From assembly GCA_044228875.1 (NCBI GenBank), contig JBGAUA010000006.1:1-56962 (forward strand): a stretch of 56,962 nucleotides of DNA. The letters run 5' to 3'. The notes under the pieces were generated by a model. The model worked only from the letters and a program-made list of their open reading frames with translations. It made no database searches and was not told the origin of the DNA. The translations under genes and the position numbers were made by a program. This document shows positions 444 through 56,962 of this stretch, piece after piece. How positions within the stretch are numbered: the first letter of the stretch is position 1; the number at the start of each line of letters is the position of its first letter. The DNA comes from Anaerolineae bacterium (GTDB taxonomy: Bacteria > Chloroflexota > Anaerolineae > Epilineales > Epilineaceae).

Positions 444-3400
444 CTACCTACACGGCAAGCTCACCGCGATCCGCCGATAGATCGCCGCCAGATCCTCACC
501 CGTGGGAGCCAGGAAGGCGTAGCTGCCGTCGCGGGCCAGGGCGCGCAGGAAGGCGGTGTCGGCGTCGGCGCCCAGGCCCACCGTAAACACCGAGACATCC
601 GAGGCCCGAGCCAGGGCGGCGAGCTGCAAGGCCCGCGCCTCGGTGCCCTCGCTGGGGCGGCCATCGGTCAACAGCACCACCGCGCGGCGCGAGCCGTCGC
701 GGCCGCGCGATTCCAGCTCGCCCAAGGACTTCTCCAGGCCCAGGTCGATGCGCGTGCCGTTGCCCAGCACCAGTTGGTCCAGGCGGCGGCTGACGGCATC
801 GAAGTCCTGGGTGATCACGTACTCCCGCCGCGCCTGGCCGTCGAAGCTCACCAGGCCCACCCGGTCCGTGCGTGGCGCCATCTCGGTCAGCAGGCCGCGC
901 GCCGCGGCCACCGCGGCCGCCAGCTTGGTGCCCTGCATGGAAATGGAGCTGTCCAGGGCCAGCACCAGGTCAACCCCCGCCTGGCTCTTGACCAGACAGG
1001 CCTCCTTCAGGACCAGCGGCAGGTAGACCGTTCCCGGCACGGGAGGCGGCGTGGGCGAGGCCGGACCCAGCACCAGCACCTGGGGTACGGGGAAGTCAAA
1101 GCTGTAGCGCCGGCCGTCCGCCGTATAGCTGGCTGAGGCCAGACGGTTGGTGGGCAGGCGGCCCGCATGCAGCGGCGTCACCTTGAGGCTGAAGCGCAGC
1201 CCCCCCGCCGGCGCCACCGGCAACTGCCACGTCACCGAGCTGCTGTCCTGGGCGGCGGCAGGCGGCTGGATCGAGGCCGGGTCCAGGCGCACATCGGTGC
1301 TTGCCTCGTCGCGCACCGTCAGGTCAGTGGCAACCACCTCACCCACCGTTCCGCTGAGCTGGCTGTAGATGGCGTTCAGCTGGTCCGCCGATGGGGCGAA
1401 AAAGTAGCGCTCGGGCCCGCCGGCCATCGTCACGAGCAGCTCCGTGACCACGTCGTCGCCGAGGCCGACGACGTATACCAGCGCGCCCCGGCCCCGTGCG
1501 CGGGCCGCCGTGCGCAAGGCGTCGATATAGGGCTGGCCCTCGCGGGTGGGTTTGCCGTCCGTCATCAGGAGCAGAACCGGCATGGCCCCTGGCCGGCCGG
1601 CCTCCGCCAGGTGGTCCAGGGCCCGCTCCATGGCCGTGCCGATATCTGTGCTGCCGTCGGAGCGGATGCTGTCCAGGACGGCGCGCAAGGCCGCGCCGTC
1701 CCCGGTCAGGGGCTGGTCCAGCGACACCAGGTCTGAGAAGGAGACCAGGCCGGCGCGGTGGCGCGTGAGGTCCAGCTGGGAGACGAAGCGACTGGCCGCC
1801 GCCCGCGCCGCGTCCAGCTTGAGGCCGCTCATCGAACTGGAGCGGTCCAGCACCAGCATGATGTCCGCCTGCCGCTGCGTACCCGGCCGGCATTGGATGT
1901 CCAGGCCCAGCTCGATGGACACCGATTCCCCGAGGGTGACGATGTCCGGCGCGGCGCGCTTGCTGCCCGTCACCGTGCAGGGCGGCGTGGCCGGTGGGGT
2001 GGCCGTGGGCGGCGGGCCGCCCCCGGCCGGGTCGTAGACGAAGATGGACTCCGACGCCGCGTCGATGGCGTAGAGGCGCCCGCCGGCGCCGGCGGCGATG
2101 TCGCGCAACCTCACGTGGTCGCGGCCGGGCGCCGGGTCCGCCTGGATGAGGCCCAGCGGGGCGCCCGCGGCATTGAAGGCTGCGATCCGCCCGTCGGCCC
2201 GGAGGACATGGACGGTCCCGTCGGGTGCCACGGTGATGCGCTCGCCGCCCTGGTCGGGGGCGATCTCCCAGCCGCCGATGCGACGGCCCGTGGCGGCCTC
2301 GAAGCGGTGGACCAGGCGGTCGGCGCCGCCCACGCCCCAGAGCGAGCCGTCGGGTCCCCGGTCCAGGTCGTTCAACCAGCCGTAGGGCGCGTCGGCGGGG
2401 CGATGGGTCCGGATGGGGTCGCGCCGCGACGGATCCTGGTCGAAGACCGTCAGCTGGCGGCGCATGGCGTCGGTGGCGTAGACCGCGCCGCCGTCGGCGG
2501 CCAGGCCCAGGCCGCTCAGGCAGTCGCAGGCCTTGTCCCACACCCGTGCACCCGCGGCCGTCAGCTTGCGCAAGCCCACCGCGCCCTGCACTGGGGCCGA
2601 GGCCACATAGACCGTCCCGTCAGCCGCCACGGTCAGGTCTTCACCGCCGCCCAGGTCCAGCACAGCGTTCGGGCGGCCGTCGGCAGCCGCCAGGCGGCGG
2701 ACCGCGCCGAGACCCGCGTCGATGATCAGCACCGAGCCGTCCGGCGCCACATCCAGAGCGGCGGGCGACAGGAAGCTTGAATGGTCCAAGGGCCGGGCCA
2801 TGCTGGCGGCCAGCAGGCGGCCGCCGCCCAGATCAAGCTGCCGCAGGCCTTGGCGGCCGTCGGGGGATCCGCTGCCGCTGGTGATGGCCAGGCGCGAGCC
2901 GCCCACCGCCAGGCCACGTGCCGGGGCGAAGGACTCCCCGGCCGGCGGCAGGTCGGCTTGGCGGTCACCAGCGGCGCCGAAGACGGCGACGCGGTCGAGG
3001 ATCCCGCCGGCCACATCCGAGGGGTACAACACCAGCAGGCGACCCGTGGCGGCATCCGCGTCTACGGCGCGGGCCCCGTTCAAAGGCAGCACCCGGTCCA
3101 CCGGCAGCCCGCCGGCGCTGAAGACCTGCAGGCGGCCGTTGCCCGCGTCCACCACGGCGACGCGGCCGTCCGGCATGACCGCCAGGTCCTCCGGGTACTC
3201 CATCTGTCCCGTCGAGGAACCGGTGTCGCCCCAGCCGCCGAGCCAGGCGCCGCTGGGGCTGAAGCGGTCGATGAAGCCCCAGGGCAGCCGGCTGAGCACG
3301 TAGACCTCGCCGCTGCCGGGCGCCACCGCCACGGCATGCGGTGCGAAGCCGAAGTTGGGTCCGCCGGAGCGCCACTGCCCGACGGGGCTGCCGTTGAGAC

Positions 3401-3821
3401 GGAAGATGGCCACGCGGCGGTTGCCGCTGTCCACCACGTAGACGCGGTCGCGGCCCAGGTCAACGGCCAGATCCCGCGGGGCGCGCAACGCGGCGACCCC
3501 GTCGCCGCGCCCCCCGAAGCTGCTCAGGACCGTGCCAGAGGCATCGATGGTCACCACCCGGTCATGGCCCGTGTCGGCCACCAGGAAGCTGCCGCCGGCA
3601 CCGGCGGCCACGCCGCCGGGGTCCAACAGGCTCTCCGGCGCATGGCCGCCGCTCCAGACGGCGCTGCGCGACCAGGACTGGCCGCCCGATTGCGCACGCA
3701 GCGCTGTCGCGGGGCCTTCGGGGGCCGCGGCGAGCGTCAGGCCGAGAGCGGCGAGTAGGAGCGACAGGGCGCCGGGGCGCGGTGACGGAGGTGACAGGGC
3801 TTCGTGGGCAGGTGGCATCAT
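444..3821 (-). CDS. Secreted NHL-repeat beta-propeller / split Ig-like / double VWA protein (about 1125 aa)
   Basis: ATG 3821 with GAGGA upstream and a signal peptide (LSLLLAALGLTLAAA). NHL repeats (VADTGHDRV, VVDSGNRRV, VVDAGNGRLQ). Two MIDAS-complete VWA domains (DRSSSM..T..TDG; DSSISM..T..TDG), a PT-rich linker and the VYLPLVLK motif. Confidence 0.85.
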   Translation of the reverse strand: MMPPAHEALSPPSPRPGALSLLLAALGLTLAAAPEGPATALRAQSGGQSWSRSAVWSGGHAPESLLDPGGVAAGAGGSFLVADTGHDRVVTIDASGTVLSSFGGRGDGVAALRAPRDLAVDLGRDRVYVVDSGNRRVAIFRLNGSPVGQWRSGGPNFGFAPHAVAVAPGSGEVYVLSRLPWGFIDRFSPSGAWLGGWGDTGSSTGQMEYPEDLAVMPDGRVAVVDAGNGRLQVFSAGGLPVDRVLPLNGARAVDADAATGRLLVLYPSDVAGGILDRVAVFGAAGDRQADLPPAGESFAPARGLAVGGSRLAITSGSGSPDGRQGLRQLDLGGGRLLAASMARPLDHSSFLSPAALDVAPDGSVLIIDAGLGAVRRLAAADGRPNAVLDLGGGEDLTVAADGTVYVASAPVQGAVGLRKLTAAGARVWDKACDCLSGLGLAADGGAVYATDAMRRQLTVFDQDPSRRDPIRTHRPADAPYGWLNDLDRGPDGSLWGVGGADRLVHRFEAATGRRIGGWEIAPDQGGERITVAPDGTVHVLRADGRIAAFNAAGAPLGLIQADPAPGRDHVRLRDIAAGAGGRLYAIDAASESIFVYDPAGGGPPPTATPPATPPCTVTGSKRAAPDIVTLGESVSIELGLDIQCRPGTQRQADIMLVLDRSSSMSGLKLDAARAAASRFVSQLDLTRHRAGLVSFSDLVSLDQPLTGDGAALRAVLDSIRSDGSTDIGTAMERALDHLAEAGRPGAMPVLLLMTDGKPTREGQPYIDALRTAARARGRGALVYVVGLGDDVVTELLVTMAGGPERYFFAPSADQLNAIYSQLSGTVGEVVATDLTVRDEASTDVRLDPASIQPPAAAQDSSSVTWQLPVAPAGGLRFSLKVTPLHAGRLPTNRLASASYTADGRRYSFDFPVPQVLVLGPASPTPPPVPGTVYLPLVLKEACLVKSQAGVDLVLALDSSISMQGTKLAAAVAAARGLLTEMAPRTDRVGLVSFDGQARREYVITQDFDAVSRRLDQLVLGNGTRIDLGLEKSLGELESRGRDGSRRAVVLLTDGRPSEGTEARALQLAALARASDVSVFTVGLGADADTAFLRALARDGSYAFLAPTGEDLAAIYRRIAVSLPCR

Positions 3822-8014: not shown

Positions 8015-9541
8015 TCAGCGCCCGGAAAGGATCCAACTCGGCCCGGACGCTGCCAGCCGCAACAGCGGCACCTCGCCTCCACCGACCAGGTCCTCCAGCC
8101 ACAGTCCCGTCTCGTCCGCGCGTGCCGCAAGCGTTCCGCCGGGAGCGATGGCCCAGTCGCCGGCGGCAGTGACGGAGCGCGCCAGGGGGCGGATACGCGG
8201 CGCGCCATCCGCCCCGTTGCCCGCCCGCAGGTCGATGGCGAGCAGACGGCGACCACCGGGATCCGCGGCGGCGGTCAACACCAGCAGCCGGCCGTCGGGC
8301 CGGGCGAAGACGGTCTGGGGGCGGCTCTCAGGCGGCAGCAGCCGATCCACCTGCAGGGGATCGTCCAAGGTAAGCAGCTGCAGGCCGGCGCCCGCCAGCC
8401 ATAGCGCGGGGCGGTCCGGCAGCCAGCCGACCGCTGCGGGGATCGGCAACGGCAGGTTCAGGATCCGCGGCGGGTCGACGCTCAAGTCCATGGCCAGCAG
8501 ATGGTCCTCGTCCGGCCTCTGCGCCGCATCGGGTTCATCCGCATCATCCGCGCGAGCCGGGCCGCGGGCCAGCAGCCAGCGCCCGTCGGCCGACCAACCG
8601 AGGGGCAGACCGCGGATGCCCATGTCCCGTGGCCGGCTGTCTCCCAGGCCCAGCAGGCGCAGCCGGCCGTCGGAATAGGCCAGGCGGCGGCCGTCGCGGG
8701 ACCAGACCAGGGCCTGGGCGGGCTGGGGGTCGACGATGGCGCTGCCGCCGCCCGGCAGGCGCAGGTGCAGGCCGCGTTGGCTGCTGAAGGCCACGGCTCC
8801 GGTAGCGCCCGCCGCGTACGTGATAACCCCCAGGTCCGGCGGGCTGAGCAGCTCCATGGGGCGGCCCGAACCCGGCAGGCGCCACAGCCCCGTGGGGCTG
8901 TCGGCCAGGAAGTAGAGATCGGCGGGCAGGATGCGCGGTGCCGCGGTGGCGGCGAACCGCCCGGCCCGGCCCGGTGCTGCGGGCGTTTCCTGGGGACGGA
9001 AGGCGGCCAGGGTGCCGGCGACGGAGGTAACGGCGCGTGGCGGCGTGGCCCGCGGCGCGGCGGTAGCCAGGATGATGGTCGGCCCGTCCTGGGCCACGTC
9101 AGGCCCGGGGGTGGGGGTAGGCCCCTGGACCAGCACCTGCACGGTGTTGCTGGGCGGCAGGTCCACGGCGAGCAGCCGGACATGGGCCTCGAAGGCGCGA
9201 GCTGCTTCGTAGCGGTGATCCAGTGTGAACACCCTGGCGGTCCGCCCTTCCACGCAGCCCTCGGCCGGCGCGATCACCACCTGGCCGTCGTCGCGGCTGT
9301 CGAGCACCCAGGCCACCGTGGGGCAGTCGAAGTTCGCGGCCTCGGGCGGCAACTCTCCAAGCAACCGCGCCGTGAACCGCACCTTTAGCGGCGCCGTTCC
9401 GCGCAACGGCTCGGCGCTGAGCTCCAGCCGCAGGGCGCCGGACGGGGCACCGGCATCCGGCGCAAGATCCGCGGACAAGTCCACCGGCTGGCAAGCGGCC
9501 AGAACGATGGCTGGAAGGAGGAGCCAGAACTGAACGCGCAT
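8015..9541 (-). CDS. Putative lipoprotein with PKD-like domain and TolB-like beta-propeller
   Basis: Lipobox LAAC, GTAPLKVRF PKD-like motif, PT linker, WSRDGRRLAY and WSADGRWLL repeats. Confidence 0.7.
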   Translation of the reverse strand: MRVQFWLLLPAIVLAACQPVDLSADLAPDAGAPSGALRLELSAEPLRGTAPLKVRFTARLLGELPPEAANFDCPTVAWVLDSRDDGQVVIAPAEGCVEGRTARVFTLDHRYEAARAFEAHVRLLAVDLPPSNTVQVLVQGPTPTPGPDVAQDGPTIILATAAPRATPPRAVTSVAGTLAAFRPQETPAAPGRAGRFAATAAPRILPADLYFLADSPTGLWRLPGSGRPMELLSPPDLGVITYAAGATGAVAFSSQRGLHLRLPGGGSAIVDPQPAQALVWSRDGRRLAYSDGRLRLLGLGDSRPRDMGIRGLPLGWSADGRWLLARGPARADDADEPDAAQRPDEDHLLAMDLSVDPPRILNLPLPIPAAVGWLPDRPALWLAGAGLQLLTLDDPLQVDRLLPPESRPQTVFARPDGRLLVLTAAADPGGRRLLAIDLRAGNGADGAPRIRPLARSVTAAGDWAIAPGGTLAARADETGLWLEDLVGGGEVPLLRLAASGPSWILSGR

Positions 9542-16906: not shown

Positions 16907-17488
16907 TCAGCCCACCTCGTCCAGCCCCTCGTTGGGCCGGTAGGCGCGGCCGGTGCGCAGGGCGCGGCCTACCTTGACGTACTTCGCCGCCCAGCGACGC
17001 CCCGGGTCGGTCTCCTCGGGACGGAGGGTGCGCTTGACCTGTGCCGGCAGGCCGGCGACCAGACTGCCCGGAGGCACCCGCATGCCCTCAGGCACCAAGG
17101 CTCCGGCGGCGACGATGCTGCCGCGGCCGATGACCGCGCCGTTGAGTACCCTGGCCCCCATGCCGATCAGGCAGCAGTCCTCCACCACGCAGCCGTGCAG
17201 GAGGGCCATGTGGCCCACCGTCACCTCGCGCCCCACGATGCAGGGCCATTCATCGGCCACGTGGAGCATGGAGAGGTCCTGGATGTTGCTGCCTTCGCCC
17301 ACCTCCACCCGGTTGATGTCGCCGCGCAACACCGCGTTGAACAGCACCGTGACCCGGGCATGGATGACCACCTCGCCCACCAGGACCACGCCAGGCGCCA
17401 GCCAGGCATCCGCGGCCACCTGGGGCAGCGTGTCGCCGTAGGGCAGGAGCAGGGCCGAAGGCAGATCGGGAACGGTCATGACGGTCAT
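16907..17488 (-). CDS. Gamma carbonic anhydrase family (left-handed beta-helix)
   Basis: AVLRGDIN, SNIQD, LHV, VGHMALLHGC (three His ligands), AGLPA. ATGA overlap with the upstream stop. Confidence 0.92.
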   Translation of the reverse strand: MTVMTVPDLPSALLLPYGDTLPQVAADAWLAPGVVLVGEVVIHARVTVLFNAVLRGDINRVEVGEGSNIQDLSMLHVADEWPCIVGREVTVGHMALLHGCVVEDCCLIGMGARVLNGAVIGRGSIVAAGALVPEGMRVPPGSLVAGLPAQVKRTLRPEETDPGRRWAAKYVKVGRALRTGRAYRPNEGLDEVG

Positions 17489-19396
17489 CCCCTTCCGGGC
17501 AAGGCCGCGCGACGGGCCGCCGTCGACCAGCGGCGCAGCGGCGGACCCAGCCGTTCGATGAGCGCGCGGCGGTGATCGTAGGCCCATTCGGCCAGGAGCA
17601 GCACAAAGGCCATCGCGGCCAGGGGCCGCCAGAGCTCGCGTCGGCCGGGCGACGGGAGCGAGATGGGCGCGGAGGCGTCGCCGGCGGCTGTTCCGGCCGT
17701 GGCCAGCGGGTTTCGCGGACGGATGTCCAAAGGGCGCGTCGAGACCATGTTGACGGCGAAGGCCGTCTCCTCCGGGCCGTCGGGGCCGGTCGCCAGCACG
17801 CGGTAGAGGCCGACGCGGCCCGTGCCGGCGAACGCCGCCTGCCCCGAAGCGATCGTGAGCGCCGTCTCCTCGCCCGCCGGGTCGATGATCCGCGCGGCTT
17901 CAACGCCGGGCGCCAGCCGCAGGGCCAGCGGTTCGCCGAGCGCCGCCTCGCGCGGCGGTTCCACCAGGCCCCGGGGTGTCAGGTTCTCCACGGCCGCGGC
18001 GATGAAGAGCGGGAAGGCCGGCAGGAGCGGCAGGTCGGAGTCCCGGAGGTCGAAGGCCATCAGGAGGGCTCGCTGGCCGTTCAGGTGGCCCTCGGCCACG
18101 AGGGGCCAGGTGACGCCGTCCGCCTGGGCGGTCACCAAGGGCGTCCAGCCCGGGCCCAGCGCCAAGGCCTGTGCCCGCAGGATGGCCGCTTCGGCGAAGC
18201 CGGTGTCGGCCAGGAGGGGGTGCGCGGGATCGGAGATCACCGGCTGTGGCAGCTCGAGGACCCGGTCCGTCGGACGCAGGGCGTCGGGACTGCCGAGGGC
18301 CAAGGGCCCGCGGGGCGCCACCAGCAGGAGGGGGCAGTCCGGCAGCCGCGCCGGCAGCAGCCCGTCCAGCACCGCCAGATCGATGAGGCCCCAAGGCCGA
18401 TCCACCTCCGCCGCGTCCAGGTTGCGCACGCTCGCCACCGCCGGCAGGAGCCCCAAGGCGATCTCGAGGAAGCGGTTGCCCTCGCCCACCAGGGCCAGTC
18501 GCAGCGGGCGGCTCCGCGGCCGGACCACCCAGGCTTCGTCGTCCAGGGGCAGGGCGTCAGGCTGGTCGAAAGCGACCCGCACCTGCGATGTCTCGGGCGG
18601 GAGGTCCAAGGTGAAGCCGCTGAAGCCGCCCGGCGGCAGGTCCAGGTCCCGGGCGTCCAGGAGCCGCCCGTCCACCTCCACCAGCAGCCGCCGCCGCGCG
18701 GACTGCCGGCCCCCGTTGCCCGCCTGCGCGAAGAGCAGCGGCCCCTGATCGGTGGGACCTTCCGTCAGGCTCAAGGCGCTGATGGCCTGGTTGACCGACG
18801 CCTCGCCCAGGGGATCGAAGCGCAGCGCCAGGCCGGCCGGCGGTGGCCCGTCCAGGTCGAAGGCGCCGTCGGAGTAAAGGATCACCGTCATCCCCGGCTG
18901 GCCCAGGGCCAGAGACCGTCAGGCCCTCCAGGACCCGGCGGATGCGGCCGGGATCCGTCTCGCCGGCGACCAGCAGCTCCGGATGCGCGTCGAACGCGAT
19001 CAACGTGAACCGCGCGCCGGGCCGGCCCTCCACCAACGCCAGGATGCGGCGCCGCGCCGCGGCCAGGCGGTTGGGGGCCAGATCGGTAGCGGCCATGGTC
19101 GCCGAACGGTCCACGAGGAGGATCAGGTGCTCGCCGCTGACCGCCTGGCGGCTGGACAGCCAGGGGCGGGACAGGGCCAGGACCAGCAGGCTCAGCGCGA
19201 GCAGCTGCAGGAGGAGGAGGGGGCTGCGGCGCAGCGGTCTCCAGGGCCGGGCCGCCGGCGGATCCTGCCGCACCTCGCGCCACAGGAAGAGGGAGGGCAC
19301 CCGCAGCGCCGCCTGGCGCGGGCGCAGCATGTGCAGGGCCAGGACCAGACCCAGCAGGGCGCTCAGGCCCAGGGCCGCGGGAGCCAGCAAGCCCAT
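17485..19396 (-). pseudogene. BatA-N/VWA membrane protein, frameshifted near 18905-18920 (pseudogene or assembly error)
   Basis: The N-half (19396) has BatA-like PSLFLW..LLLLQLLAL..LALSRP and VWA DRSATM. The C-half continues in another frame (LALGQPGMTVILYSDG) and ends with a TM segment LLLAEW. The C-frame has TGA at 18919-18921. Confidence 0.75.
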
Positions 19397-24574: not shown

Positions 24575-26848
24575 TCAGCGCGGGCGTAGCAGCCGAGGTA
24601 CGTAGATGAGCCGCTTGCCCGGCTGCAAGGTGCGGGTAGGTCGCGCGGAAGGGGTGGCGCTGGCGGTCGTGGGTCTGTCCGACGGCGTCGCGGTGGGCAG
24701 AGCCTCGGTGGGCGTCGGCTCCCTACGGGTGCTCGTGGGCGTGGGTGTTGCGGGGGACAAGGTCGCCGTGGCGCTGGCCGTGGGCGTCGCGCTGGGAGCC
24801 GCGGTGTCCGTGGGCATCGCTGTGGGCGTCATCGTCGGCGCCACGGGCGCGCCGCCCCAGCGGTAGAGCTGCAGGCGGTTGTTGCCGCTGTCCACCACCA
24901 GTACGCGGCCGTCGCGGTTGGCGGCCACACCCAGGGGCCGGTCCACCAGGCCCGGACCGCCGCCCGCCCCGTCGGCGAAGACAGCCACCACCGCGTCAGC
25001 GAGCGGCTTCTCCGGAGAAGGCGAGCGGAATACCGTCACGCGCCGGAGATTGAAATCGTCGTTCTCCAACAGGTACAGGTACCGGCCGTCCGAGGAAAGG
25101 GACATAGGCCCCCGCAGGAAGCCCGGCGGCACGTCGCCCCGCTCGGGTGCCTCGGCCTCCCAGCGGTGGACCAGGAACCCCTCCAAGGTGTAGGCGCTCA
25201 GGCGCGCCTGCCCACGCTCGATCACGTACAAGAGGCCGTCCGGACCCACCGTCAGATCCCGGGGATACTCCAGCGCGTCCTTGCCCGCGCTGCCGAAGCT
25301 TCCGATGAGTTCCCCCGTCGGGCTGCGCCGCACGATGCGGTTGTTGCCCGTGTCGGCGATGTAGACGGTGCCGTCCGCGTCTACCGCTACGCCCTCCGGT
25401 CCGTCCAGCCCTTCAGCGCTGCGTTGCCGCTGACCCGTGCCGAACGCACCCAGAGGCGTGCCATCGGCCATGAAGATGTGGACCAGGTGGCGATTCGGAT
25501 CCGCCACATAGACCTTCAAGGCGTCACGCTCCGGCCCCGTTCGCCAGAGGGCCAGACCGGCCGGCTCGCCCATGTCCATGTCCGGGGCGCCGAAGAGGTA
25601 CAACGGTGAGAAGTCCTGCGCGGCGTCCAACACCTGGATGCGCCGGTTGCCGCTGTCGCTGACGACCAGCAACTGGTCGTCCAGAGCGACGGCTCGCGGC
25701 CGGTCGAACTGGCCCGGGTCGCGGCCGAGCCCGGCCAATGAGGTGATGCTGCCGCCGTCCGGTGGCAGCAGCATCAGGCCGGCATCGCCACTGTCCAACG
25801 GGTCGGTGCCGGCATAGGGGTTGCTGAGGATTGCGTCGCCGCCAGGAAGGAAGGCGGCTCCCTGAAGATGCAGCTGCAGGCGCGGGTCCACGCCGGCCAG
25901 GCCCAGGGCCGGGCCGAGGAGCTTGCCGTCCGGACCGGAGCGCCAGAGCCGCGGGCTGGTGTAGGAGGGCTCGAAGTCGCGGATGATGAAGCGTCCGTCC
26001 GTGCTCACGGCGATGCCGGAGGGCTTGTTGAGCTTGTCCTCGACCCGGCTGCCCAAGCTGCTCACCTGGCGCTTCAGCGTGCCGTCCCGGGCGAAGACGA
26101 CCAGCCGGTTGCGGTTGGTGTCCGCCACCCAGACCTCGTCGTCCGGTCCGATGGCCACGTCCCGCGGATGGTTGAGTTTGTGCGGGTCGCTGCCCGGGCC
26201 ACCCAGGGTGCCCAGCCACAAGCTGCCGTCGGGGGTGAAGATCTCGATGTCGCTGGCTCCCTCATCCGCCACGTAGACGTTCCCGCGGCTGTCCACGGAG
26301 AGGCCGATGGGGTTGAGAAAGAGCCCGGGGCCCTTGCCGGGACCGCCCCATTCCTGGAAGGGCTTGTTCTCGCAATGGGCCTTGACACAGAACTTGTCGT
26401 CCAGCCGGTACTGCAGCACCACGGAACGCCCGGCATCGACGACGTAGACGTACTTGCCGTCGGGGCTGACCGCCACATCGCGGGGCTGCCAGAACTGCCC
26501 GTAGTTCTCGCCGCGGCGCCCCCACCAGCCCAGATAGGGTTCGGCCGAGGGTTGGAAGACCTGGATCCGGGCGTTTCCGGTATCCACCACGAAGATCCGG
26601 CTGCCGTCCGGCGTCGTCGCCACGCCCATGGGCAGGTTGAGCTGCCCTCCCTTGGCCACGGCGTCGATGACGCGCACGAAGGTGGGGCCCTTCGCGGCTT
26701 CGGCCTCATCCTGGCCCGGCGCCGCCACCGCCCAGCCCCTCGCCCCCGTCAAGGTGGCGACGGCCACGCCCAGTACCAGCAGGTGCGCTACGAAGCGACA
26801 CCTTGCCGAACGGACAGACCGATGGTTGTGTGGGAAATCGCTGATCAT
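24575..26848 (-). CDS. Secreted NHL-repeat (double beta-propeller) protein with PT-rich tail
   Basis: Many NHL repeats (GQFWQPRDVAV, VYIADTGNNRI, VVDSGNNRLQ), a signal-like N-terminus, TP linker and C-terminal LIYVPRLLR. Start uncertain. Confidence 0.82.
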   Translation of the reverse strand: MISDFPHNHRSVRSARCRFVAHLLVLGVAVATLTGARGWAVAAPGQDEAEAAKGPTFVRVIDAVAKGGQLNLPMGVATTPDGSRIFVVDTGNARIQVFQPSAEPYLGWWGRRGENYGQFWQPRDVAVSPDGKYVYVVDAGRSVVLQYRLDDKFCVKAHCENKPFQEWGGPGKGPGLFLNPIGLSVDSRGNVYVADEGASDIEIFTPDGSLWLGTLGGPGSDPHKLNHPRDVAIGPDDEVWVADTNRNRLVVFARDGTLKRQVSSLGSRVEDKLNKPSGIAVSTDGRFIIRDFEPSYTSPRLWRSGPDGKLLGPALGLAGVDPRLQLHLQGAAFLPGGDAILSNPYAGTDPLDSGDAGLMLLPPDGGSITSLAGLGRDPGQFDRPRAVALDDQLLVVSDSGNRRIQVLDAAQDFSPLYLFGAPDMDMGEPAGLALWRTGPERDALKVYVADPNRHLVHIFMADGTPLGAFGTGQRQRSAEGLDGPEGVAVDADGTVYIADTGNNRIVRRSPTGELIGSFGSAGKDALEYPRDLTVGPDGLLYVIERGQARLSAYTLEGFLVHRWEAEAPERGDVPPGFLRGPMSLSSDGRYLYLLENDDFNLRRVTVFRSPSPEKPLADAVVAVFADGAGGGPGLVDRPLGVAANRDGRVLVVDSGNNRLQLYRWGGAPVAPTMTPTAMPTDTAAPSATPTASATATLSPATPTPTSTRREPTPTEALPTATPSDRPTTASATPSARPTRTLQPGKRLIYVPRLLRPR

Positions 26849-27038
26849 CCGTGGGCGTACCGGTTGCCCACCGTTCGGGTCGTTGCGGCGCCGGGAGGGC
26901 GCCTCCGCAACGATCGGCAGGGCGGGCAATCCTGAGGGCAAGGCCACCGAACACCCTTGGGCAGGGGGCGGAGGCGACGAGGACCCGAGCGATGATGCTT
27001 GACTGGGAAGAGAGCCAGGGGGGGCGCCAGGAACGAAC

Positions 27039-27088
27039 CTGACGAACAAGACCATTAACATTATACTGCCCGCACCTGCCGGTGTCTA
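27039..27088. promoter_or_regulatory. Overlapping divergent sigma70 promoters sharing the -10 region
   Basis: Plus: CTGACG (27039-44), 17 nt, TATACT (27062-67). Minus: TAGACA (27088-83), 17 nt, TATAAT (27065-60). Confidence 0.7.
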
Positions 27089-27164: not shown

Positions 27165-28757
27165 ATGTTCCGTATCCGCATTCCCGCTCGTGCCGGCCGG
27201 CCGGCACCGGTTGCCCTGGGCGCCGGAATCGCGCTGGCCCTGGCCTTCACCGCCACCAGCCGGTCGCAGGAACCGCCCGCCGCTAGGCTCTGGTTGCCGG
27301 CGCTCCTGTCGCGCGCGCCCATTCCCACGCCGGAGCCGCCAGGCACGCTCGCCCCGACGGCGCCGACCACCGCCACCAGCATTCCCCCGTCGGCGATCCC
27401 GCCGACGGCCACGTCCGGCGCAGTCCCTTCGTCTTCGCCCAACCCGACGTCCTCCCCTGTGCCGCTTCCCAGCGCCGGTCCTACCTCCGAAGCGGAGGCC
27501 TGCGGCGCCATCCGGTCCTTCGAGGATGGCCTGTCGCCGCAACGCGAACTGCACGTGTCCGAACGCGGTGACGACGCCACGGGCGACGGGTCGCCCGGGC
27601 GACCCTTCCGCAGCCTGGTCCCGGCGGCCCGGGCCGCGCGTCCCGGTACCGCCATCCGTCTGCACGCCGGCAGCTACGCCGCGGGCGTCTACCTGGAGAA
27701 CCTGCGCGGAACGGCTGCGGCACCCATCTGGCTGGGCGGGATGCCCGGCGAGGAGCGACCGCGTCTTCTGGGCGGGGCCAACGCCCTGCACCTGGTCCGG
27801 CCCGCCTGGCTGGTGGTCCACGACCTGGATGTCAGCGGCCAGAGCGCCAACGGGATCAACGCCGATGACGCCGGCGCGGTGACCGAGCCCCAGGCAGCCG
27901 GCCCGCTCATCTTCCGCGGCCTGGCCATCGCGCAGGTGGGCGGCAGCGGCAACCAGGACTGCCTGAAGCTCAGCGGCATCCATGGCGTCCTGGTGAGGGA
28001 TTCCACCTTCACCCGTTGTGGCGGCACCGGCTCGGCCATCGACATGGTGGGCGTCCACCAGGCTCTGGTGGCGCGCAACCATTTCCAGGACTTGTCCGGC
28101 AACGCGGTGCAGGCGAAAGGCGGCTCGGCCGACGTGGAGATCCGCTGGAACCACATGCTGCGGGCCGGTGAGCGGGCAGTCAACATGGGCGGATCCACTG
28201 GCCTGGAGTTCTTCCGCCCCCCCCTGGACCGTGCTGCGGAGAACGCCGAGGCGAGGCGCGTCACGGTACTGGCCAACCGCATCGAGGGCGGCGTCACCCC
28301 CTGGGCCTTCGTGGGCTGCGTGGACTGCCTGGTCGCGCAGAACACGGTCATCGAACCCACGCGCTGGCTGATGCGCATCCTGCAGGAAACCAGCAGCCAG
28401 GGCGAGTTCCGCTTCGCCCCGACGCGCGACGGCCAGGTGCTCAACAACCTCTTCGTCTTCCGCCGCGGCCAGATCAGGGCCGATGTGAACGTGGGGGGCG
28501 GCACCGCGCCGGAGACCTTCCGCTTTCGGAACAACCTGTGGTACGCGGTGGACGATCCCGGACGCTCGACGCCCAGCCTGCCCGTGGCGGAGACGGGCGG
28601 CGTCGTGGGTCGCGACCCGCTGTTGGGCGCCGCAGGCGCCATCTCGCGCGGCAGTCCGGCCCTGGGCGCCGGCTTGCCGGGCTCCTGGGCGCCGGGCGAC
28701 CTGATCGGCACCTGCTGGGCCGATCCGCCGGCCATCGGCGCCCGCGAGGGGCGTTGA
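27165..28757 (+). CDS. Secreted right-handed parallel beta-helix (pectin-lyase-like) protein
   Basis: GGAAGG RBS, signal peptide, RLWLPALLSR then PT linker, GDDATGDGS..PFRSL, DCLKLSG, AVQAKGGS, Asn-ladder repeats. Confidence 0.8.
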   Translation: MFRIRIPARAGRPAPVALGAGIALALAFTATSRSQEPPAARLWLPALLSRAPIPTPEPPGTLAPTAPTTATSIPPSAIPPTATSGAVPSSSPNPTSSPVPLPSAGPTSEAEACGAIRSFEDGLSPQRELHVSERGDDATGDGSPGRPFRSLVPAARAARPGTAIRLHAGSYAAGVYLENLRGTAAAPIWLGGMPGEERPRLLGGANALHLVRPAWLVVHDLDVSGQSANGINADDAGAVTEPQAAGPLIFRGLAIAQVGGSGNQDCLKLSGIHGVLVRDSTFTRCGGTGSAIDMVGVHQALVARNHFQDLSGNAVQAKGGSADVEIRWNHMLRAGERAVNMGGSTGLEFFRPPLDRAAENAEARRVTVLANRIEGGVTPWAFVGCVDCLVAQNTVIEPTRWLMRILQETSSQGEFRFAPTRDGQVLNNLFVFRRGQIRADVNVGGGTAPETFRFRNNLWYAVDDPGRSTPSLPVAETGGVVGRDPLLGAAGAISRGSPALGAGLPGSWAPGDLIGTCWADPPAIGAREGR

Positions 28758-28780
28758 CGACGCGCCCCCCGGGGTCGTCA
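28755..28780 (+). terminator. Possible stem-loop after the beta-helix gene
   Basis: TGACGAC..GTCGTCA inverted repeat. No U-tract. Confidence 0.3.
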
Positions 28781-28800
28781 GCGGTCGCGGGTGTCGGGGA

Positions 28801-28809
28801 TGCTAGAAT
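28801..28809 (+). promoter_or_regulatory. Extended -10 placed for a leaderless transcript
   Basis: TGCTAGAAT ends 6 nt before ATG 28816. No SD. Confidence 0.65.
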
Positions 28810-28815
28810 CGCAGC

Positions 28816-30081
28816 ATGACCCCTCTTCCGGCGGCCCGACGCTCGGCGACCTGCCTTCTGCTCCTGGGTCTCCTGTCGGCGGCGGCCTGCCGCCGTTCCG
28901 GCGATCCGCGCGTTGGCGGCAACGCCTCTCCCGACGCTCCGCGAGGGGGCACGGTGGCCGGCTCGCCCGCGGACCGGCCGTCCTTCGGGATGGGAGAGCT
29001 GCCGGGCCGCCTGGTCGTCATGGCCATCGACACCGCCGGGCAGCGCAATCTGGCCCTCCAACTGGACGCCTCCTCCGGCGAATGGCAGCTACTCTGGACG
29101 ACCTCGGCGATGGGCAACGTCACGGACTGGTCGCCGGCGCCGGATGGCAAACGGGTGGTCTACCGCATCATCCAGCGCTCGAGCCCCACCGACGCCGTCG
29201 AGGCCCTGGTCGTCCGCGAGCTGGCGGCGGGGGCGCCGGCGCGCGTCCTGACCGTCGTGGACGCGAGCAAGGAGCGCCTGGCCGGCTTCGTCTGGGCGCC
29301 TGACGGCTCGAGCGTGGGCTTCGGCCTGCAGGCGCTTTCGTCCGCGGGAAGCGGCAAGGGGGCCGGCTGGTCGCTGCACGCGGTGTCGCCGGGAGATCTG
29401 GGGAACGGCTCGAGCGGCACGCCCGAGACCGCGGCGGCGGAAGTCCTCTGGCAGGCGTCTTCACCGCCCGACCAGCCGTTGTCGCTGGTCCTTGCCGCCT
29501 ATGACCCACAGCGCGGTCGTGCCGTGGTTTCACAGCTTGCCGCGGACAGCGGGATCATCGCCTCCCTCCGGCTCATCGATCTGGTCGATCGGCGCGAGCT
29601 GACCGCCTTGCCCGTCACGATCGCCGGCCTAACGCCCGCGCCCGGCCCCGGCGGGCTGGCCCTGCCGGAGGGGGCTCCGTTGGCCGATCGCCTGCGCCTC
29701 CTGGACCTGCCGACCGGCACGGTGCGCGAGCGATTCCGGATGCCCGCAGGCGGCAGCCTGGGGCGCCCCCTGTGGTCCGCCGACGGCCGGCGTCTGGCCC
29801 TGGCCGGCCACCCCGATGGCGCGGACAGCGGCCATACCGCGATCCTGGTCCTGGACCCGGCGTCGACCGCGGCCGCGCCGGACCTGCGATTCGACATCCC
29901 GGGCGGCGGCGGAGCCCCCCTGGCCTTCAGCCCCGACGCCCGCTGGCTCCTGGCGCAGGCGGGCGGCGACGGCGAGGCCTTCGGCTCGCGCCTGACGCTG
30001 CTGCCCCTGGCGGGAGGGGATCCCGTCAGCGCCTCCTTTGCCGTCCCTCCGGACAGCTGGGCCCTCAGCTGGCTGCCCTGA
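28816..30081 (+). CDS. Putative lipoprotein with TolB/PD40-like beta-propeller
   Basis: Lipobox-like AAAC, repeats SPAPDGKRVVY, WAPDGSSVGF, WSADGRRLA, FSPDARWLL. Confidence 0.7.
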   Translation: MTPLPAARRSATCLLLLGLLSAAACRRSGDPRVGGNASPDAPRGGTVAGSPADRPSFGMGELPGRLVVMAIDTAGQRNLALQLDASSGEWQLLWTTSAMGNVTDWSPAPDGKRVVYRIIQRSSPTDAVEALVVRELAAGAPARVLTVVDASKERLAGFVWAPDGSSVGFGLQALSSAGSGKGAGWSLHAVSPGDLGNGSSGTPETAAAEVLWQASSPPDQPLSLVLAAYDPQRGRAVVSQLAADSGIIASLRLIDLVDRRELTALPVTIAGLTPAPGPGGLALPEGAPLADRLRLLDLPTGTVRERFRMPAGGSLGRPLWSADGRRLALAGHPDGADSGHTAILVLDPASTAAAPDLRFDIPGGGGAPLAFSPDARWLLAQAGGDGEAFGSRLTLLPLAGGDPVSASFAVPPDSWALSWLP

Positions 30082-30100
30082 CGGCCAGGCCCATCGGCGA

Positions 30101-31525
30101 ATGCTCTTTCCCACCTTCGGCTTCGCGCTCTTCTTTGCCATCGTCTACCCCGTCAGTTGGGTCTTGGCGCGACGGTCGACCGCCTGGCGTGGCTTCGTCC
30201 TGGCGGTCAGCTATGTCTTCTACGGCGCCTTCGACTGGGGCCACAGCTACGTCGGCCTGCAGTACACCGCCCTCCTGGCGGTCTCGACCCTGGTCAACGC
30301 CGCCCTGGCCCGCGGCATCCACCGCGCCTTGCCGGGCAGTCCGGCCAGGCGGCTGGCCCTCGCCGCCGCCCTGCTGTTCAACCTGGGCATCCTGGCCTGG
30401 TTCAAGTACGCCCTCTTCCTGGCCCAGACAGGCAACGACCTCCTGCGCTGGCTGGAGGTCTCCGACCGGATTCCGCTGGTCAAACTGGCGCTGCCGGTGG
30501 GCATCAGCTTCTTCACCTTCCAGGCCATCAGCTACGCCGTCGACGTCTACCGCGGGCTGGCGCCGGTGGCCACGCTCGACTTCGCGGTCTATCTGGCCTT
30601 CTTCCCTCACGTGGTGGCCGGTCCCATCGTCCGCGCCATCGAGTTCGTGCCGCAGCTGGCGCAGGAGCGGCGGCTGACGAAGGCCGATGCCAGCCGCGCG
30701 GCCTGGCTGATCGGCGGCGGGCTTTTCAAGAAGGTGGTGGTGTCCAGCTACCTGGCCACCGCGCTGGTGGATCCGGTCTTCGGCGCGCCGGAGCGCTTCA
30801 GCGCCGTGGAGATCCTGGCCGCCATCTACGGCTACGCCGTGCAGATCTTCGCCGACTTCAGCGGCTATACGGACATGGCCATCGGCCTGGCCCTGCTTCT
30901 CGGTATCCGCTTTCCGCAGAACTTCGACCGTCCCTATGCCGCGGCCAGCATCCAGGACTTCTGGCGCCGCTGGCATATGACCCTGAGCCGCTGGCTGCGC
31001 GACTACCTCTACATCCCGCTGGGCGGAAGCAGGAAGGGCGGACTGCGGACCTACGCGAACCTGATGATCACCATGACCCTGGGCGGCTTGTGGCACGGGG
31101 CGTCCCTGACCTTCGTGGCCTGGGGGTTGTGGCAGGGCCTTGGCCTGGCGGCGGAACGGGCCTGGGGCCGGGGTGGCCGGCGGCAGGTCCTGGGGCGCCT
31201 GACCACCTTTCACTTCATCTGCCTGGGATGGGTGCTCTTTCGCGCCCAGGGCCGCGGGCTGGAGGGCTTCCAGTTGGCCGGAACCCTGCTGACGCGCCTG
31301 GCCACGGCCTGGACGGTGCCGCCGGCGACCGTCATCGGACCACTGCTGGTGGCCGTGGCCATGATCTTCTGGCAACAGCTGCCCGGGCGGTCCATGACCG
31401 GACTGGAACGAGGCTTCGGCCGGCTGCCCCTGGTCGTCCAGGGCGCCGCCCTGGGGGCCTTCATCTTCCTCTGCATCATGCTCGGCCCGCGCGGCGTGGC
31501 CCCCTACATCTACTTCCAGTTCTGA
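30101..31525 (+). CDS. MBOAT O-acyltransferase (AlgI/PatA family)
   Basis: LPVGISFFTFQAISY, GPIVR, DFSGYTDMAIG, FWRRWHMTLSRWLRDYLYIPLGG, GLWHG, C-terminal YIYFQF. Confidence 0.95.
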   Translation: MLFPTFGFALFFAIVYPVSWVLARRSTAWRGFVLAVSYVFYGAFDWGHSYVGLQYTALLAVSTLVNAALARGIHRALPGSPARRLALAAALLFNLGILAWFKYALFLAQTGNDLLRWLEVSDRIPLVKLALPVGISFFTFQAISYAVDVYRGLAPVATLDFAVYLAFFPHVVAGPIVRAIEFVPQLAQERRLTKADASRAAWLIGGGLFKKVVVSSYLATALVDPVFGAPERFSAVEILAAIYGYAVQIFADFSGYTDMAIGLALLLGIRFPQNFDRPYAAASIQDFWRRWHMTLSRWLRDYLYIPLGGSRKGGLRTYANLMITMTLGGLWHGASLTFVAWGLWQGLGLAAERAWGRGGRRQVLGRLTTFHFICLGWVLFRAQGRGLEGFQLAGTLLTRLATAWTVPPATVIGPLLVAVAMIFWQQLPGRSMTGLERGFGRLPLVVQGAALGAFIFLCIMLGPRGVAPYIYFQF

Positions 31526-31535
31526 GCCAGCGCCC

Positions 31536-39047: not shown

Positions 39048-39818
39048 CTAACGTGGGCCGTGAGGCCCGAAGTAGCGCTGCGGCGCCACCGCCGGCTGCC
39101 CGGCCGTGAAGAGGCGGATGAGCAGCAGGCCGGCGATGAAACCGCCGATATGGGCGGCATAGGCGATACCGTCTCCCCCGCCCCGCAATGAGGCGTAACC
39201 GCTGAGCAACTGGAAGGCGAACCACAGCCCAACAGCGGCGACGGCCGGCACATCCACCACCGAGCGGAGCACGAGCATGCGCACGCGGCGGTGGGGATAG
39301 AGCATCAGGTAGGCGCCCTGCACGCCGGAGATGGCGCCGGAGGCGCCCAGGCTGGGGATGGTGGGATCCCCGCCCAAGACAGCGGTGCTGAAGATGAAAG
39401 ACAGGGATGCGATCACCCCGACGACGAGGTAGAAGAGCAGGTAGCGCCCGTGTCCCAGCCGGTTCTCGATGTTGTCGCCGAAGATCCACAGGTACAGCAT
39501 GTTGCCGAAGAGATGGGCGATGCCGCCGTGCATGAACAGGCTGGCCAGAAGCGTGAGGTAGACGGAAACGGGCGTGGGCTGCAAGCCCGGCACGATGAAG
39601 GTCTGGCCGGAAGCCGGATCCCGGACCGTCTGGTCTGCCGTCACCAGGTCGCGTCCGCCGAGGATCTCCGCCGGCACGGTGGACCAGGCCATGGTGAAAC
39701 GCTGGTCGGCCCCCATCCCTTGGAAGACCACGAAGACCAGGACGCAGACGGCGATCAAGCCGAGGTTGACCAGCGGGAAGATGACGCGATCGCTGTTGTC
39801 GTCGCCGAGAGGCATCAT
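39048..39818 (-). CDS. Rhomboid-family intramembrane serine protease
   Basis: SLFMHGGIAHLFGNMLYLWIFGDNIE, GASGAI (Ser), AHIGGF (His). Confidence 0.95.
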   Translation of the reverse strand: MMPLGDDNSDRVIFPLVNLGLIAVCVLVFVVFQGMGADQRFTMAWSTVPAEILGGRDLVTADQTVRDPASGQTFIVPGLQPTPVSVYLTLLASLFMHGGIAHLFGNMLYLWIFGDNIENRLGHGRYLLFYLVVGVIASLSFIFSTAVLGGDPTIPSLGASGAISGVQGAYLMLYPHRRVRMLVLRSVVDVPAVAAVGLWFAFQLLSGYASLRGGGDGIAYAAHIGGFIAGLLLIRLFTAGQPAVAPQRYFGPHGPR

Positions 39819-39888
39819 GGGGGCTGACCCTTTCTGATCGATCCGAAGGCGCCGGGTGCTGAAGGCGGAAGCATTGTACCGCAGGCGA

Positions 39889-53633: not shown

Positions 53634-53892
53634 TAGGTCTGTCGCGGTCATCGCTGCGACCGGACCCAGAACCTGGAGATTAATAGCACGGGAGCGGCGA
53701 AGGACCAAGCCGACGCCCAGAAGAGACCGCCCGGCGGTCCTGCGCCCCGCAGGCGGCCATCCGCGCCAGCGCACCGTAACACCTGCGACTGCTGAGCGGT
53801 TAATCGTATGCTAACCGCGCGACGACCGACGACCATGGGGCGCCGCGCTTGTTGCCATATCGGCGTCGTCAAACGCCTGGGGGCTCGAATCC

Positions 53893-56800
53893 ATGAATGC
53901 TCCGCACCGGCTGTCTCGGTTGTCACGGCCGCGCGCTCGCGCCGCCGGGCTCAGCGCTGTCCTCGCGTTGGGCTTTCTCGCCGCGATCTCCGCAGCCGGC
54001 GAGCGCCCCCTGCGTGCCCAACCGGCGCCGCCCGCACTCAACTACCGCCTGCAGGCCACCTGGGAGAGCCAGCCGCCAGCTACCCATGTGGCCCTGGAAT
54101 GGCCGGAAGGGCATGTCAGCGGTGGTCTGGGGCAGAACCCCGAAAGTCGCGAGATCCTGGTCACCGACCTGAGCGACCACAGCCTGCGCGTCTACGCCCC
54201 CGACGGCCGTTTCCTGCGCCGCCTGGCCGGCTTCGGCATCGGCCCCGGCCAGCTGGCCGAACCTCGCGATGTGGACGGCCTGCCCGGCGGGCGCCTGGCG
54301 GTGGCCGACACGGGCAACAACCGCGTGCAGGTGCTGGCGGCCGACGGCGCGCCCCTGGCCAGCTGGGCGGTCAACGGGCCGCAGGGCCTGGAGGTGGTGC
54401 GCGACTGGATCTACGTCGTCTCCCGCCCCGACCGGCGGGTCTACGGCTTCAACGCCGATGGCGTCCTGCAGCGCAGCATCGACCTGAGCGGCCGCCTGAG
54501 CGCGCCGGAAGGCCTGGCCTACCGCGGCGACATGACCGGCGGCGGCGCGGGCGAACGCCCTACGGCCACCTTCGTGGTGGCCGACCCTCAGAGCGGCCAG
54601 GCCCTGGGCGTGCGCGACGAGGGCACGCAGCAGGTGACCCTCCTCGCCGCCCCGCCGCGCATGGTCATCGCCGCTCCCTGGTCCTACCAGGACGCACAGT
54701 ACTGGCTGATCGGCGCGGAGGCCAAGGGGCTGGTGATCAGCCATCCCAGCGGCGAGGTCGCGGCCGAACTGACCTTTGATCGCGTCGCCGACATCGAAAC
54801 CCTGTCCGACGGACCGGTGCTGTTGGCGGCAGGCTCGCAGGGCCTGGCCCTGGTGCCGGACCTGGCCTACGTCCTGCGGCAGGAGACCGACACCTTCGGG
54901 CGCCTGCTGGCCCCGCGGCGCATCGGGGTGGGAGCGGACGTGGTGCTGGGCGACGGGGCGCCGCGGGCCCAGATCTGGAGCCTGAGCGGCCATCCGCTGG
55001 CGGACCTGCGCTTCGACGCCGGCGACCCGCCCACGGTGCCGGAAGAAGACATCGCCGCCCCGGCGGACGTGGCGGCCGCCGGCCCCTGGCGCTTCGCGCT
55101 GTGGCGCAGCGGTCGCATCCGCCGCCTGGACCCAGCCACGGGTCTGGCGCCCACCTGGGCGCCGGAGGCCGGCGGAAGCCGCTGGATGGTGGGCCTGGGC
55201 GCGGCGGGCGACAGTCTGGCCAGCTTCGACCTGGCCAACCAGCAGGTGGTCTTCTTCGACCCCAACCTGCAGCCCACGGGCTTCTGGCCCACGGCGGCCG
55301 CCGGCTTCCTGGGCGCCGCGGACCTGGCGCTCTCGGCCGAGCGGGTGTTCATCATCGACCGCTACCGTTACCGCCTGACGGTCTGGAGTCGCGACGGACA
55401 GCTGCTGGCCCAGCAGACGATGGCCGCCCATCCGGAGCGGGTAGCCGCCGACGCCCAGGGCCGGGCCTTCGTCCTCACCCGCTCCGGCTGGGTGCTGGCC
55501 TTCGACGCCGCCGGCGCCCCCTTGGGCGCCTGGCCGGTGAAGGCGGGCGACGCCGAGCCCTCCGACCTGGCCCTGGACGGCGCGGGCCTGCTCTACGTGG
55601 CCGACGCCAAGGGCTTCGTGCAGGTCTTCGCCCCCGACACGGGCACGCCCGCCGGCCTGCCGCAGTTCGGCGGCGGGGGGCGCTGCGGGGCCATCGCCTT
55701 CAAGAGCGCGCAGCCCACGGAGGTGGAGCTTGGCCAGCCGGTGGAGGTGCAGCTGGTGGTCGACGGCAGCTGCCCCAGCGAGGACCAGAACGTGGACGTG
55801 GTCCTGACCCTGGACCGCTCGGGCTCGATGTACGGCCGCAAGATGCAGAGCGCACGGGACGGGGCCATCAACTTCGTCCTGAACGTGGACGGGCCGCGCT
55901 CGCGGGTGGGGGTGACCACCTTCTCCAACGGCGCGGAGGAGGTGGTGCCCTTGACGGAGGAGCGGGTGCGGGCCATCCGCGGCATCGCCGGCGTGGTGGC
56001 GGGCGGCAGCACGAACATCGTCGAGGGCCTGAGCCAGGCGCGGCAGACGATGAACCGGGCGGTGGTGCGCCCGGACCTGACCCGGGTGATCATCTTCCTG
56101 TCGGATGGGCGCCATTCCATCGGCGCGGTGCCCATCCGCCAGCTGGACGACGTGATCGCGGCCACCCGCAGTGACGGCATCCGCGTCTTCACGATCGGCC
56201 TGGGCGGCGACGCCGACCGCGACACGCTCCGCCGCATGGCCACGGACGCCACGCATTTCTACGTCAGCCCCACGGAGGACGAGCTGGGCGAGATCTACCA
56301 GCAGATCGCCGGGCGCATCGCGGCCACGCCGCTGTTCAAGGCGGTGGTGGTGAAGGACCGGGTGCCGGGCAACATGCAGTTCCTGCCGGGCACGGGTCGC
56401 CCCGTCGAGCCTGCCTGGGACGAGGCCTCGCGCACCCTCAGCTGGGATCTGGGCATGGTGCCGGAGCCGGGCTTCCGCCTGACCTACCAGCTGCTGCCCC
56501 TGCGCCCGGGGCTCTGGCCGACGAACGTGGACGCCTGGACGGAGCACGTGGACGGCCGCGACGCGCCGGGCCGGCTGGACTTCCCGGTGCCCTATGTGCG
56601 GATCAAGGGCTTCCTGCCCACCGATACGCCCACGCCAACGGACACGCCGAGCGCGACAGCCACGCCGACGGACACGCCCTCGCCCACGGTGACGCCGACT
56701 GCCACCCCCACCCTGACGCCGACGAGCAGCCCCACCCCCACGCACACCCTCACCGCCACGCCCAGCCCGCGGCCCAGCCGCACGCCCACGCGGCGGCCCA

Positions 56801-56962
56801 GGCCCATCTTCCTGCCCTTCGCCATGGTGGACCGCTGCACGCCGCAGACGCGGCTGAGCGACATCGTCCTGGTGCTGGACAGCAGCTCCAGCATGGAGTT
56901 CCCCACCCATGCGGGCGGCCCGAAGAAGCGCGAGGCGATGGTGGCGGCGGCCTCGGCCTTCC
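53893..56962 (+). CDS. Secreted NHL-repeat / split Ig-like / double VWA protein (partial, runs off the window; absent from the ORF track)
   Basis: Frame 1 from ATG 53893: signal peptide ([20 protein letters not shown]), NHL ([11 protein letters not shown]), VWA DRSGSM at 55813, PT linker, IFLPFAMV, second VWA DSSSSM. No stop before the window end. Confidence 0.88.

Follow-up and report, generated by a model that had tools for sequence, protein, structure and literature searches.

A VWA domain splits a predicted isopeptide-type β-sandwich in an expanded protein family of an Anaerolineae bacterium

The window analysed here is a stretch of 56,962 nucleotides from an Anaerolineae bacterium (assembly GCA_044228875.1, contig JBGAUA010000006.1, positions 1 to 56,962). 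Near its left end the minus strand carries a gene whose product joins NHL-repeat propellers to a module in which a von Willebrand factor type A (VWA) domain is predicted to interrupt a β-sandwich of the isopeptide-forming kind. The gene and its parts are as follows:

444..3821, minus strand: complete gene with its ATG at 3821, encoding 1125 aa and closed by a stop
3693..3821, minus strand: N-terminal signal-peptide-like or anchor segment, residues 1–43, hydrophobic core at about 16–34 (Kyte-Doolittle)
2022..3674, minus strand: NHL-repeat β-propeller region, residues about 50–600 (Pfam NHL, NCBIfam ScyF-like NHL)
1980..2021, minus strand: Pro/Thr-rich linker, residues 601–614 (sequence)
1884..1979, minus strand: pre-VWA hairpin, the split sandwich's predicted A and B strands, residues 615–646 (AlphaFold2, hhalign, conservation)
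1347..1883, minus strand: inserted VWA domain 1 (VWA1), residues 647–825, whose MIDAS (metal-ion-dependent adhesion site) is complete; Pfam VWA at 653–820
1083..1346, minus strand: post-VWA part of the sandwich, residues 826–913, six predicted strands (AlphaFold2, VIA-wide comparison, hhalign)
999..1082, minus strand: second Pro-rich linker, residues 914–941 (sequence)
447..998, minus strand: VWA domain 2 (VWA2), residues 942–1125, protein end ...LPCR; Pfam stretches at 945–1099

The database copy of the protein is likewise 1125 aa long (P0152), and homologues begin in a similar way. The N-terminal segment reaches a 19-residue Kyte-Doolittle maximum of 1.68 at residue 16. Pfam detected NHL (PF01436) in three stretches with 65.9 bits against a cut-off of 20 (1.9e-18), accompanied by weak TEN_NHL and SGL matches, and VWA (PF00092) with 166.2 bits against a cut-off of 23.8, the second VWA match covering residues 951–1099. 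The MIDAS of VWA1 consists of D659-x-S661-x-S663 (1833–1847), T725 (1647–1649) and D755 (1557–1559). The hairpin in front of VWA1 (CTVTGSKRAAPDIVTLGESVSIELGLDIQC, residues 615–644) contains Cys615 (1977–1979), Lys621 (1959–1961) and Cys644 (1890–1892). Behind VWA1 follow Asp838 in LTVRDE (1308–1310), Trp865 in VTW (1227–1229) and, in GRLPTN, Thr891 (1149–1151) and Asn892 (1146–1148). VWA2 is bracketed by Cys942 (996–998) and Cys1124 (450–452), both in columns that are at least 90% conserved; most homologues end in ...PC[RK], and a Cys lies within the last four residues in 73 of 128 homologue records. This conserved terminal pair recalls the N-to-C disulfide of the A domains of von Willebrand factor.

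An initial annotation of this DNA had read the region as a VWA domain interrupting one β domain, with a Lys/Asp/Asn triad and an added Cys pair, fused to NHL propellers. The strings it quoted and its codon positions for Lys, Asp and Asn agree exactly with the translation, the NHL fusion is borne out by Pfam, and the remaining parts of the description stand on the structural and conservation results given below.

We modelled the module with AlphaFold2 from a 79-row alignment, which gave a mean predicted local distance difference test score (pLDDT) of 96.0 and a predicted template modelling score of 0.87. In the model, two strands (model residues 6–15 and 25–35) precede the VWA domain and six follow it, and the hairpin block has a pLDDT of 90–98. 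Both flanks of VWA1 thus form one predicted β-sandwich that is interrupted by the VWA domain between strands B and C, and the alignment with DUF11 domains described below breaks at the same B–C loop. Lys621 lies in the first strand, Asp838 in the first strand after the VWA domain, and Asn892 opens the penultimate strand. In strand order these are CnaA-like positions: in this class the Lys belongs to the first strand and the Asn to the penultimate one, on opposite sheets, with Asp as the catalyst, according to the sections available of a 2025 survey (PMC12617251). In a VIA-wide structural comparison of the post-VWA sandwich, CnaA-type isopeptide domains were the top matches, and the Foldseek top list for the module includes SpaC, PitA, RrgA and GBS104. 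A Foldseek search with the isolated β part returned nothing at E ≤ 0.001.

To relate the sandwich to DUF11 (CLIPPER) domains, a family profile from which the VWA columns had been excised was aligned by hhalign with 17 bona fide DUF11 domains from the same genome. The alignment reached a probability of 96.9% and E 1.3e-10 over 95 collinear columns, with Lys on Lys and Asp on Asp. The pre-VWA hairpin by itself matched DUF11 strands A–B (78.5%, E 1.7e-5, again Lys on Lys), and the post-VWA part gave 94% and E 1.4e-7. Controls gave E 0.2 for the reversed alignment, E 0.066 for the best of 20 column shuffles and E 0.67 for the VWA part. Weak Pfam DUF11 matches were also seen in 3 of 59 homologues (best 0.0033) and, in the genome scan, in the post-VWA part of five paralogues, beginning at about profile position 32. 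At the profile level the sandwich without its VWA insert is DUF11/CLIPPER-like, yet it is not a CLIPPER domain that Pfam recognises. The DUF11-like character proposed for the flanks by the initial annotation therefore holds by profile comparison and fails with the Pfam hidden Markov model (HMM). The genome itself contains 27 DUF11 matches, 17 of them above the cut-off (contigs C283, C261, C292 and C239). Several copies stand in tandem within very long ORFs (open reading frames) of 1720 and 2518 aa, and in most of the matches the canonical K...D...N residues are present along with additional Cys pairs.

We also compared a profile of 40 post-VWA segments with PDB sequences, which yielded six matches, all at E ≥ 0.098. 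In the match to Mfa5 (E 0.1, not significant) the P-T-N motif of the family falls on chain positions 500–501; with an offset of 17, inferred from the construct description, these would be Thr517–Asn518. Asn518 is the experimentally shown isopeptide Asn of Mfa5 and Thr517 its helper (PMC7835359, in the part available). The alignment of the PTN motif with Mfa5 is suggestive and not significant.

Conservation was determined for residues 610–915, which were searched against 1.84 billion representative proteins and gave 423 clusters at E ≤ 1e-30. A MAFFT alignment was built from the query and 128 whole-module rows out of 150 listed representatives (129 rows in total; 22 partial or multi-VWA rows were dropped). 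Lys621 is kept in 121, Asp838 in 124 and Asn892 in 116 of the 129 rows. The added Cys pair is near-invariant (Cys615 128/129, Cys644 129/129), as is Trp865 (129/129), and each of the MIDAS residues D659, S661, S663, T725 and D755 is found in 125–129 rows.

The triad residues also vary together. In a set of 168 sequences (the 129 rows plus 39 further paralogues), Lys and Asn occur jointly in 143, Lys alone in six, Asn alone in none and neither in 19; Asp is present in all 149 rows that carry Lys. Average-product-corrected mutual information ranks the pairs K–N, K–D and D–N at positions 3, 19 and 43 of 44,253 column pairs. Within the 40 paralogues of the genome the complete triad is found in 28, and in 11 of the other 12 Lys and Asn are both absent. 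A single function shared by K, D and N would be expected to leave such joint conservation in the alignments. Five paralogues have lost MIDAS residues of the inserted VWA domain and yet retain both triad and Cys pair (C151, C210:22548-26213, C260, C265 and C291; L062, L063, L056, L058 and L053), and therefore the triad appears to serve the sandwich rather than metal binding; the putative lock of the sandwich seems to be under selection independent of metal binding.

In the 19 members without Lys (e.g. C11:34820-37531, C271:17485-20262, C274 and C50) the Lys is usually replaced by Arg, His or Gln, the Asn by Gly or Ser, and the Asp often by Glu. Glu is found at the Asp838 site only where Lys is replaced, typically as R...E...G/S. 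Here an R–E pair, with a small residue making room, looks like an alternative and apparently non-covalent arrangement.

From the observed architecture, fold class, triad coupling and family expansion we infer how the module might work, including bond formation, disulfide, force path and adhesin role. Taking position, homology and covariation together, it is probably a module of stalk and head, of the RrgA/GBS104/Mfa5 type, that can lock covalently by forming a Lys621–Asn892 isopeptide. The MIDAS-bearing VWA domain would replace the B–C loop of a CnaA/CLIPPER(DUF11)-like sandwich. After export and folding, the buried amine of Lys621 in strand A would attack the side-chain amide of Asn892 in the penultimate strand of the opposite sheet; Asp838 would act as catalytic acid, Thr891 would position Asn892, and ammonia would leave. 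The resulting bond would fix the N-terminal hairpin, an isolated stretch of 30 residues, to the rest of the sandwich across the 179-residue VWA insert, and a Cys615–Cys644 disulfide would close this hairpin at its neck, from which the chain departs for the VWA domain. Load between the NHL propellers and VWA2 could then pass via the cross-link, bypassing VWA1, whose metal site may bind an acidic ligand. The module would be expected to resist heat and proteases. The protein would be secreted without a sortase or a type IX secretion system (T9SS) tail. About 40 paralogues, this protein among them, have the cassette of split sandwich and VWA2 in common, set behind variable heads.

Several results weigh against this proposal. 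Pfam DUF11 (PF01345) gave no match on the whole protein at E ≤ 1, nor in a six-frame scan of the genome at E ≤ 10, and together with GBS104-like_Ig and the newer isopeptide-domain families it matched neither the protein nor either flank (about 30 residues before VWA1 and about 90 after) even at E ≤ 10. In the hhalign alignment Asn892 stands one column beside the Asn of DUF11. A tree-controlled test of the coupling was underpowered: on a FastTree tree the Lys state changes 13 times and the Asn state 17 times; of six well-supported independent pairs, Asn follows Lys in about five and opposes it in none (sign test, p ~0.06). Finally, the best whole-module superpositions were obtained with 4FX5 and ArnB, in neither of which do we know of an isopeptide.

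The strongest competing explanation keeps the same split CnaA-like sandwich and takes Lys621, Asp838 and Asn892 as a buried non-covalent cluster of salt bridge and hydrogen bonds, with no isopeptide anywhere in the family. It draws on the indirect nature of the case for the bond, on DUF11 domains reported to do without isopeptides in the available sections of PMC12617251, and on those relatives that dispense with Lys and Asn, often with an R–E pair. A merely polar cluster is harder to reconcile with the presence of Asp in every Lys-bearing row and with an Asn that never occurs without Lys. The residues moreover occupy the canonical CnaA positions and include a Thr-Asn motif that Mfa5, RrgA and GBS104 also have, and in characterised homologous folds a K/D/N constellation of this kind is described as reacting spontaneously. 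We consider the non-covalent cluster unlikely.

Less probable still, at a low level, is a sandwich of the ancient VWA-plus-β-sandwich kind (ArnB, Sec23-24, 4FX5, ITIH, integrin-β hybrid) that is no adhesin isopeptide domain and matches K/D/N by coincidence. The superpositions on 4FX5 and ArnB speak for it, and a phmmer search of the module against the PDB found VWA domains only, one match (8S05) reaching slightly beyond the VWA domain; on the other side stand the CnaA-type matches of the VIA-wide comparison and the profile alignment with DUF11. Chance resemblance in a high-GC ORF that may not even be a gene, conceivable in a window of 68–75% GC with many overlapping spurious ORFs, is effectively refuted by the strong Pfam domains, the 423 homologue clusters and the AlphaFold2 model; near-identical recurrence in sludge metagenomes and RNA-library contigs that span parts of the gene also speak against it.

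The isopeptide-locked module, as we prefer to read it, belongs to a markedly expanded family. The genome (G000; 3.9 Mb in 315 contigs, 87% complete) contains 40 near-full copies of the module including the one at 444..3821, and by a hand sum of ORF lengths the module ORFs come to about 114 kb, which corresponds to 3% of its sequence. One further copy lies at the opposite end of the window:

53815..56961, plus strand: second family member, NHL followed by the module at about 55684–56598, running off the window end

It shows the signature C-K-C-D-W-N and the MIDAS DSSTD. The heads are variable: NHL propellers were found in at least 10 of 39 scanned ORFs, and many proteins of about 600 aa consist of the cassette only. 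All 16 other genomes of the same taxonomic family contain 17–54 matches each (E ≤ 1e-25, among at most 66 candidates scored per genome). In sister families 15 of 18 genomes have 1–3 matches (range 0–3), and a single query found no match at E ≤ 1e-30 in 200 other genomes sampled across the phylum, a result that holds for the genomes searched and is not proof of absence. A single-protein scan for related loci recovered two true relatives among seven loci.

Among named records the nearest are those of Ca. Epilinea brevis, with 90% identity, and of a Caldilineae metagenome-assembled genome, with 63%; near-identical copies of the gene turn up in sludge metagenomes from at least six studies. Contigs of one RNA (metatranscriptomic) library span parts of the gene; since they also cover intergenic DNA and the neighbouring gene, they are not proof of transcription. 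According to the part available of PMC10746286, Ca. Epilinea forms short filaments that adhere to other filaments of Chloroflexota by a mechanism called unclear there. We tentatively suggest that the MIDAS-bearing VWA domain in an isopeptide- and disulfide-locked CLIPPER-like sandwich, followed by VWA2, could be a lineage-specific, sortase-independent adhesin platform, expanded to 17–54 matches per genome (about 3% of this one) and equipped with interchangeable heads (NHL propellers, other domains or no head at all). Through such a platform the short filaments might, in activated sludge, fasten themselves to flocs and to other filaments of Chloroflexota.

With regard to anchoring, the protein carries one literal sortase-like string:

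498..512, minus strand: LAPTG, residues 1104–1108, inside VWA2, matching the LA.TG sortase regular expression of PMC12617251

We rejected it as a sorting signal. It lies inside VWA2, is found in 0 of 128 homologues and is followed by 17 residues with no hydrophobic tail. The protein end (...LPCR) shows no C-terminal LPXTG-type signal with hydrophobic tail, and the locus no pilin/sortase operon; the four sortase genes of the genome all lie on other contigs. Pfam GBS104-like_Ig (PF21426) was absent from the protein, flank and homologue searches. The absence of a functional sorting signal, assumed in the initial annotation, is thus upheld, and its likening to pilus-tip adhesins applies to the fold and not to a pilin operon or a sortase substrate tail.

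The neighbours of the gene are of a housekeeping kind and comprise a GT4 glycosyltransferase, GlmS, DnaE and a MazF-like gene. The last of these encodes a PemK/MazF-like toxin domain (1.1e-22) at 1–360 on the plus strand, at the edge of the window, directly downstream of 444..3821 and on the opposite strand. Elsewhere in the window an 828-aa NHL-repeat propeller protein without the VWA cassette (24575–27061, minus strand, NHL 2.6e-52) represents a head alone. An ORF of 389 aa with a single VWA domain (37852–39021, plus strand, 6.6e-14) adjoins a rhomboid protease gene (39048–39986, minus strand); its VWA domain weakly resembles that of the module (C282:38446-38886, E 2.5e-10). Several long ORFs (8015–9541, 17485–19008 and 27165–32085) went without a Pfam match at the thresholds applied, and some of them may be spurious overlapping frames in DNA of 70% GC.

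VWA-headed self-locking isopeptide domains are known from Gram-positive sortase pili and from one Bacteroidota fimbrial protein. The present module would place the same device in Chloroflexota, outside any pilus system and combined with NHL propellers, a second VWA domain and an extra Cys pair predicted to form a disulfide. If the bond forms, it widens the host and architectural range of VWA-in-CnaA modules. The module is invisible to current Pfam models, and databases label these proteins no further than 'VWA domain-containing' or 'ChlD/YncE'; where surveys assign predicted isopeptides to Pfam entries, split domains of this kind may escape them. In a full-text literature search only the 2025 survey (PMC12617251) was found to link isopeptides with Chloroflexota; in the portions of its text and supplement that were available such domains are counted, and VWA and NHL go unmentioned. 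With its family-restricted expansion the module is a concrete, testable candidate for how Ca. Epilinea-like filaments attach, and it could double as a display scaffold that is compact and stable.

RrgA, GBS104, SpaC, PitA and Mfa5 have established isopeptide modules of the VWA-in-CnaA kind. RrgA D2/D3, GBS104 N2 (PF21426), SpaC and PitA come with LPXTG signals, pilin motifs, sortase operons and large VWA arm insertions, whereas the protein described here lacks sorting signal and operon alike, does not match PF21426 and is not a member of that group. 4FX5, a VWA protein of Catenulispora acidiphila, and ArnB (8S05/5A8J) likewise show two strands, a VWA domain and a sandwich. CLIPPER/DUF11 domains (PF01345; PDB 9IFR with K715/D748/N806) are described in the available part of PMC12617251 as contiguous stalk repeats; here, in contrast, one copy is split by a VWA domain of 179 residues, is missed by the Pfam HMM and has its Asn one column off. 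A close parallel in layout is Mfa5 D1–D2 of Porphyromonas gingivalis (PDB 6TO1), whose D2 comprises residues 105–135 and 423–544 with the VWA domain between strands B and C and uses K111–N518, D432 and T517 (PMC7835359, in the part available). The triad positions and the VWA domain inserted in the sandwich correspond to this layout and the PTN motif aligns weakly, with a sequence similarity that is marginal (E 0.1). Mfa5 forms the tip of type-V fimbriae; it has a T9SS C-terminal domain, bears an ARM2 subdomain on its VWA domain and includes a CnaB-like D3. In the Anaerolineae protein, by comparison, no fimbrial operon accompanies the module, NHL propellers stand upstream and a second VWA domain downstream, an extra Cys pair is added, and the arrangement is repeated in dozens of paralogues.
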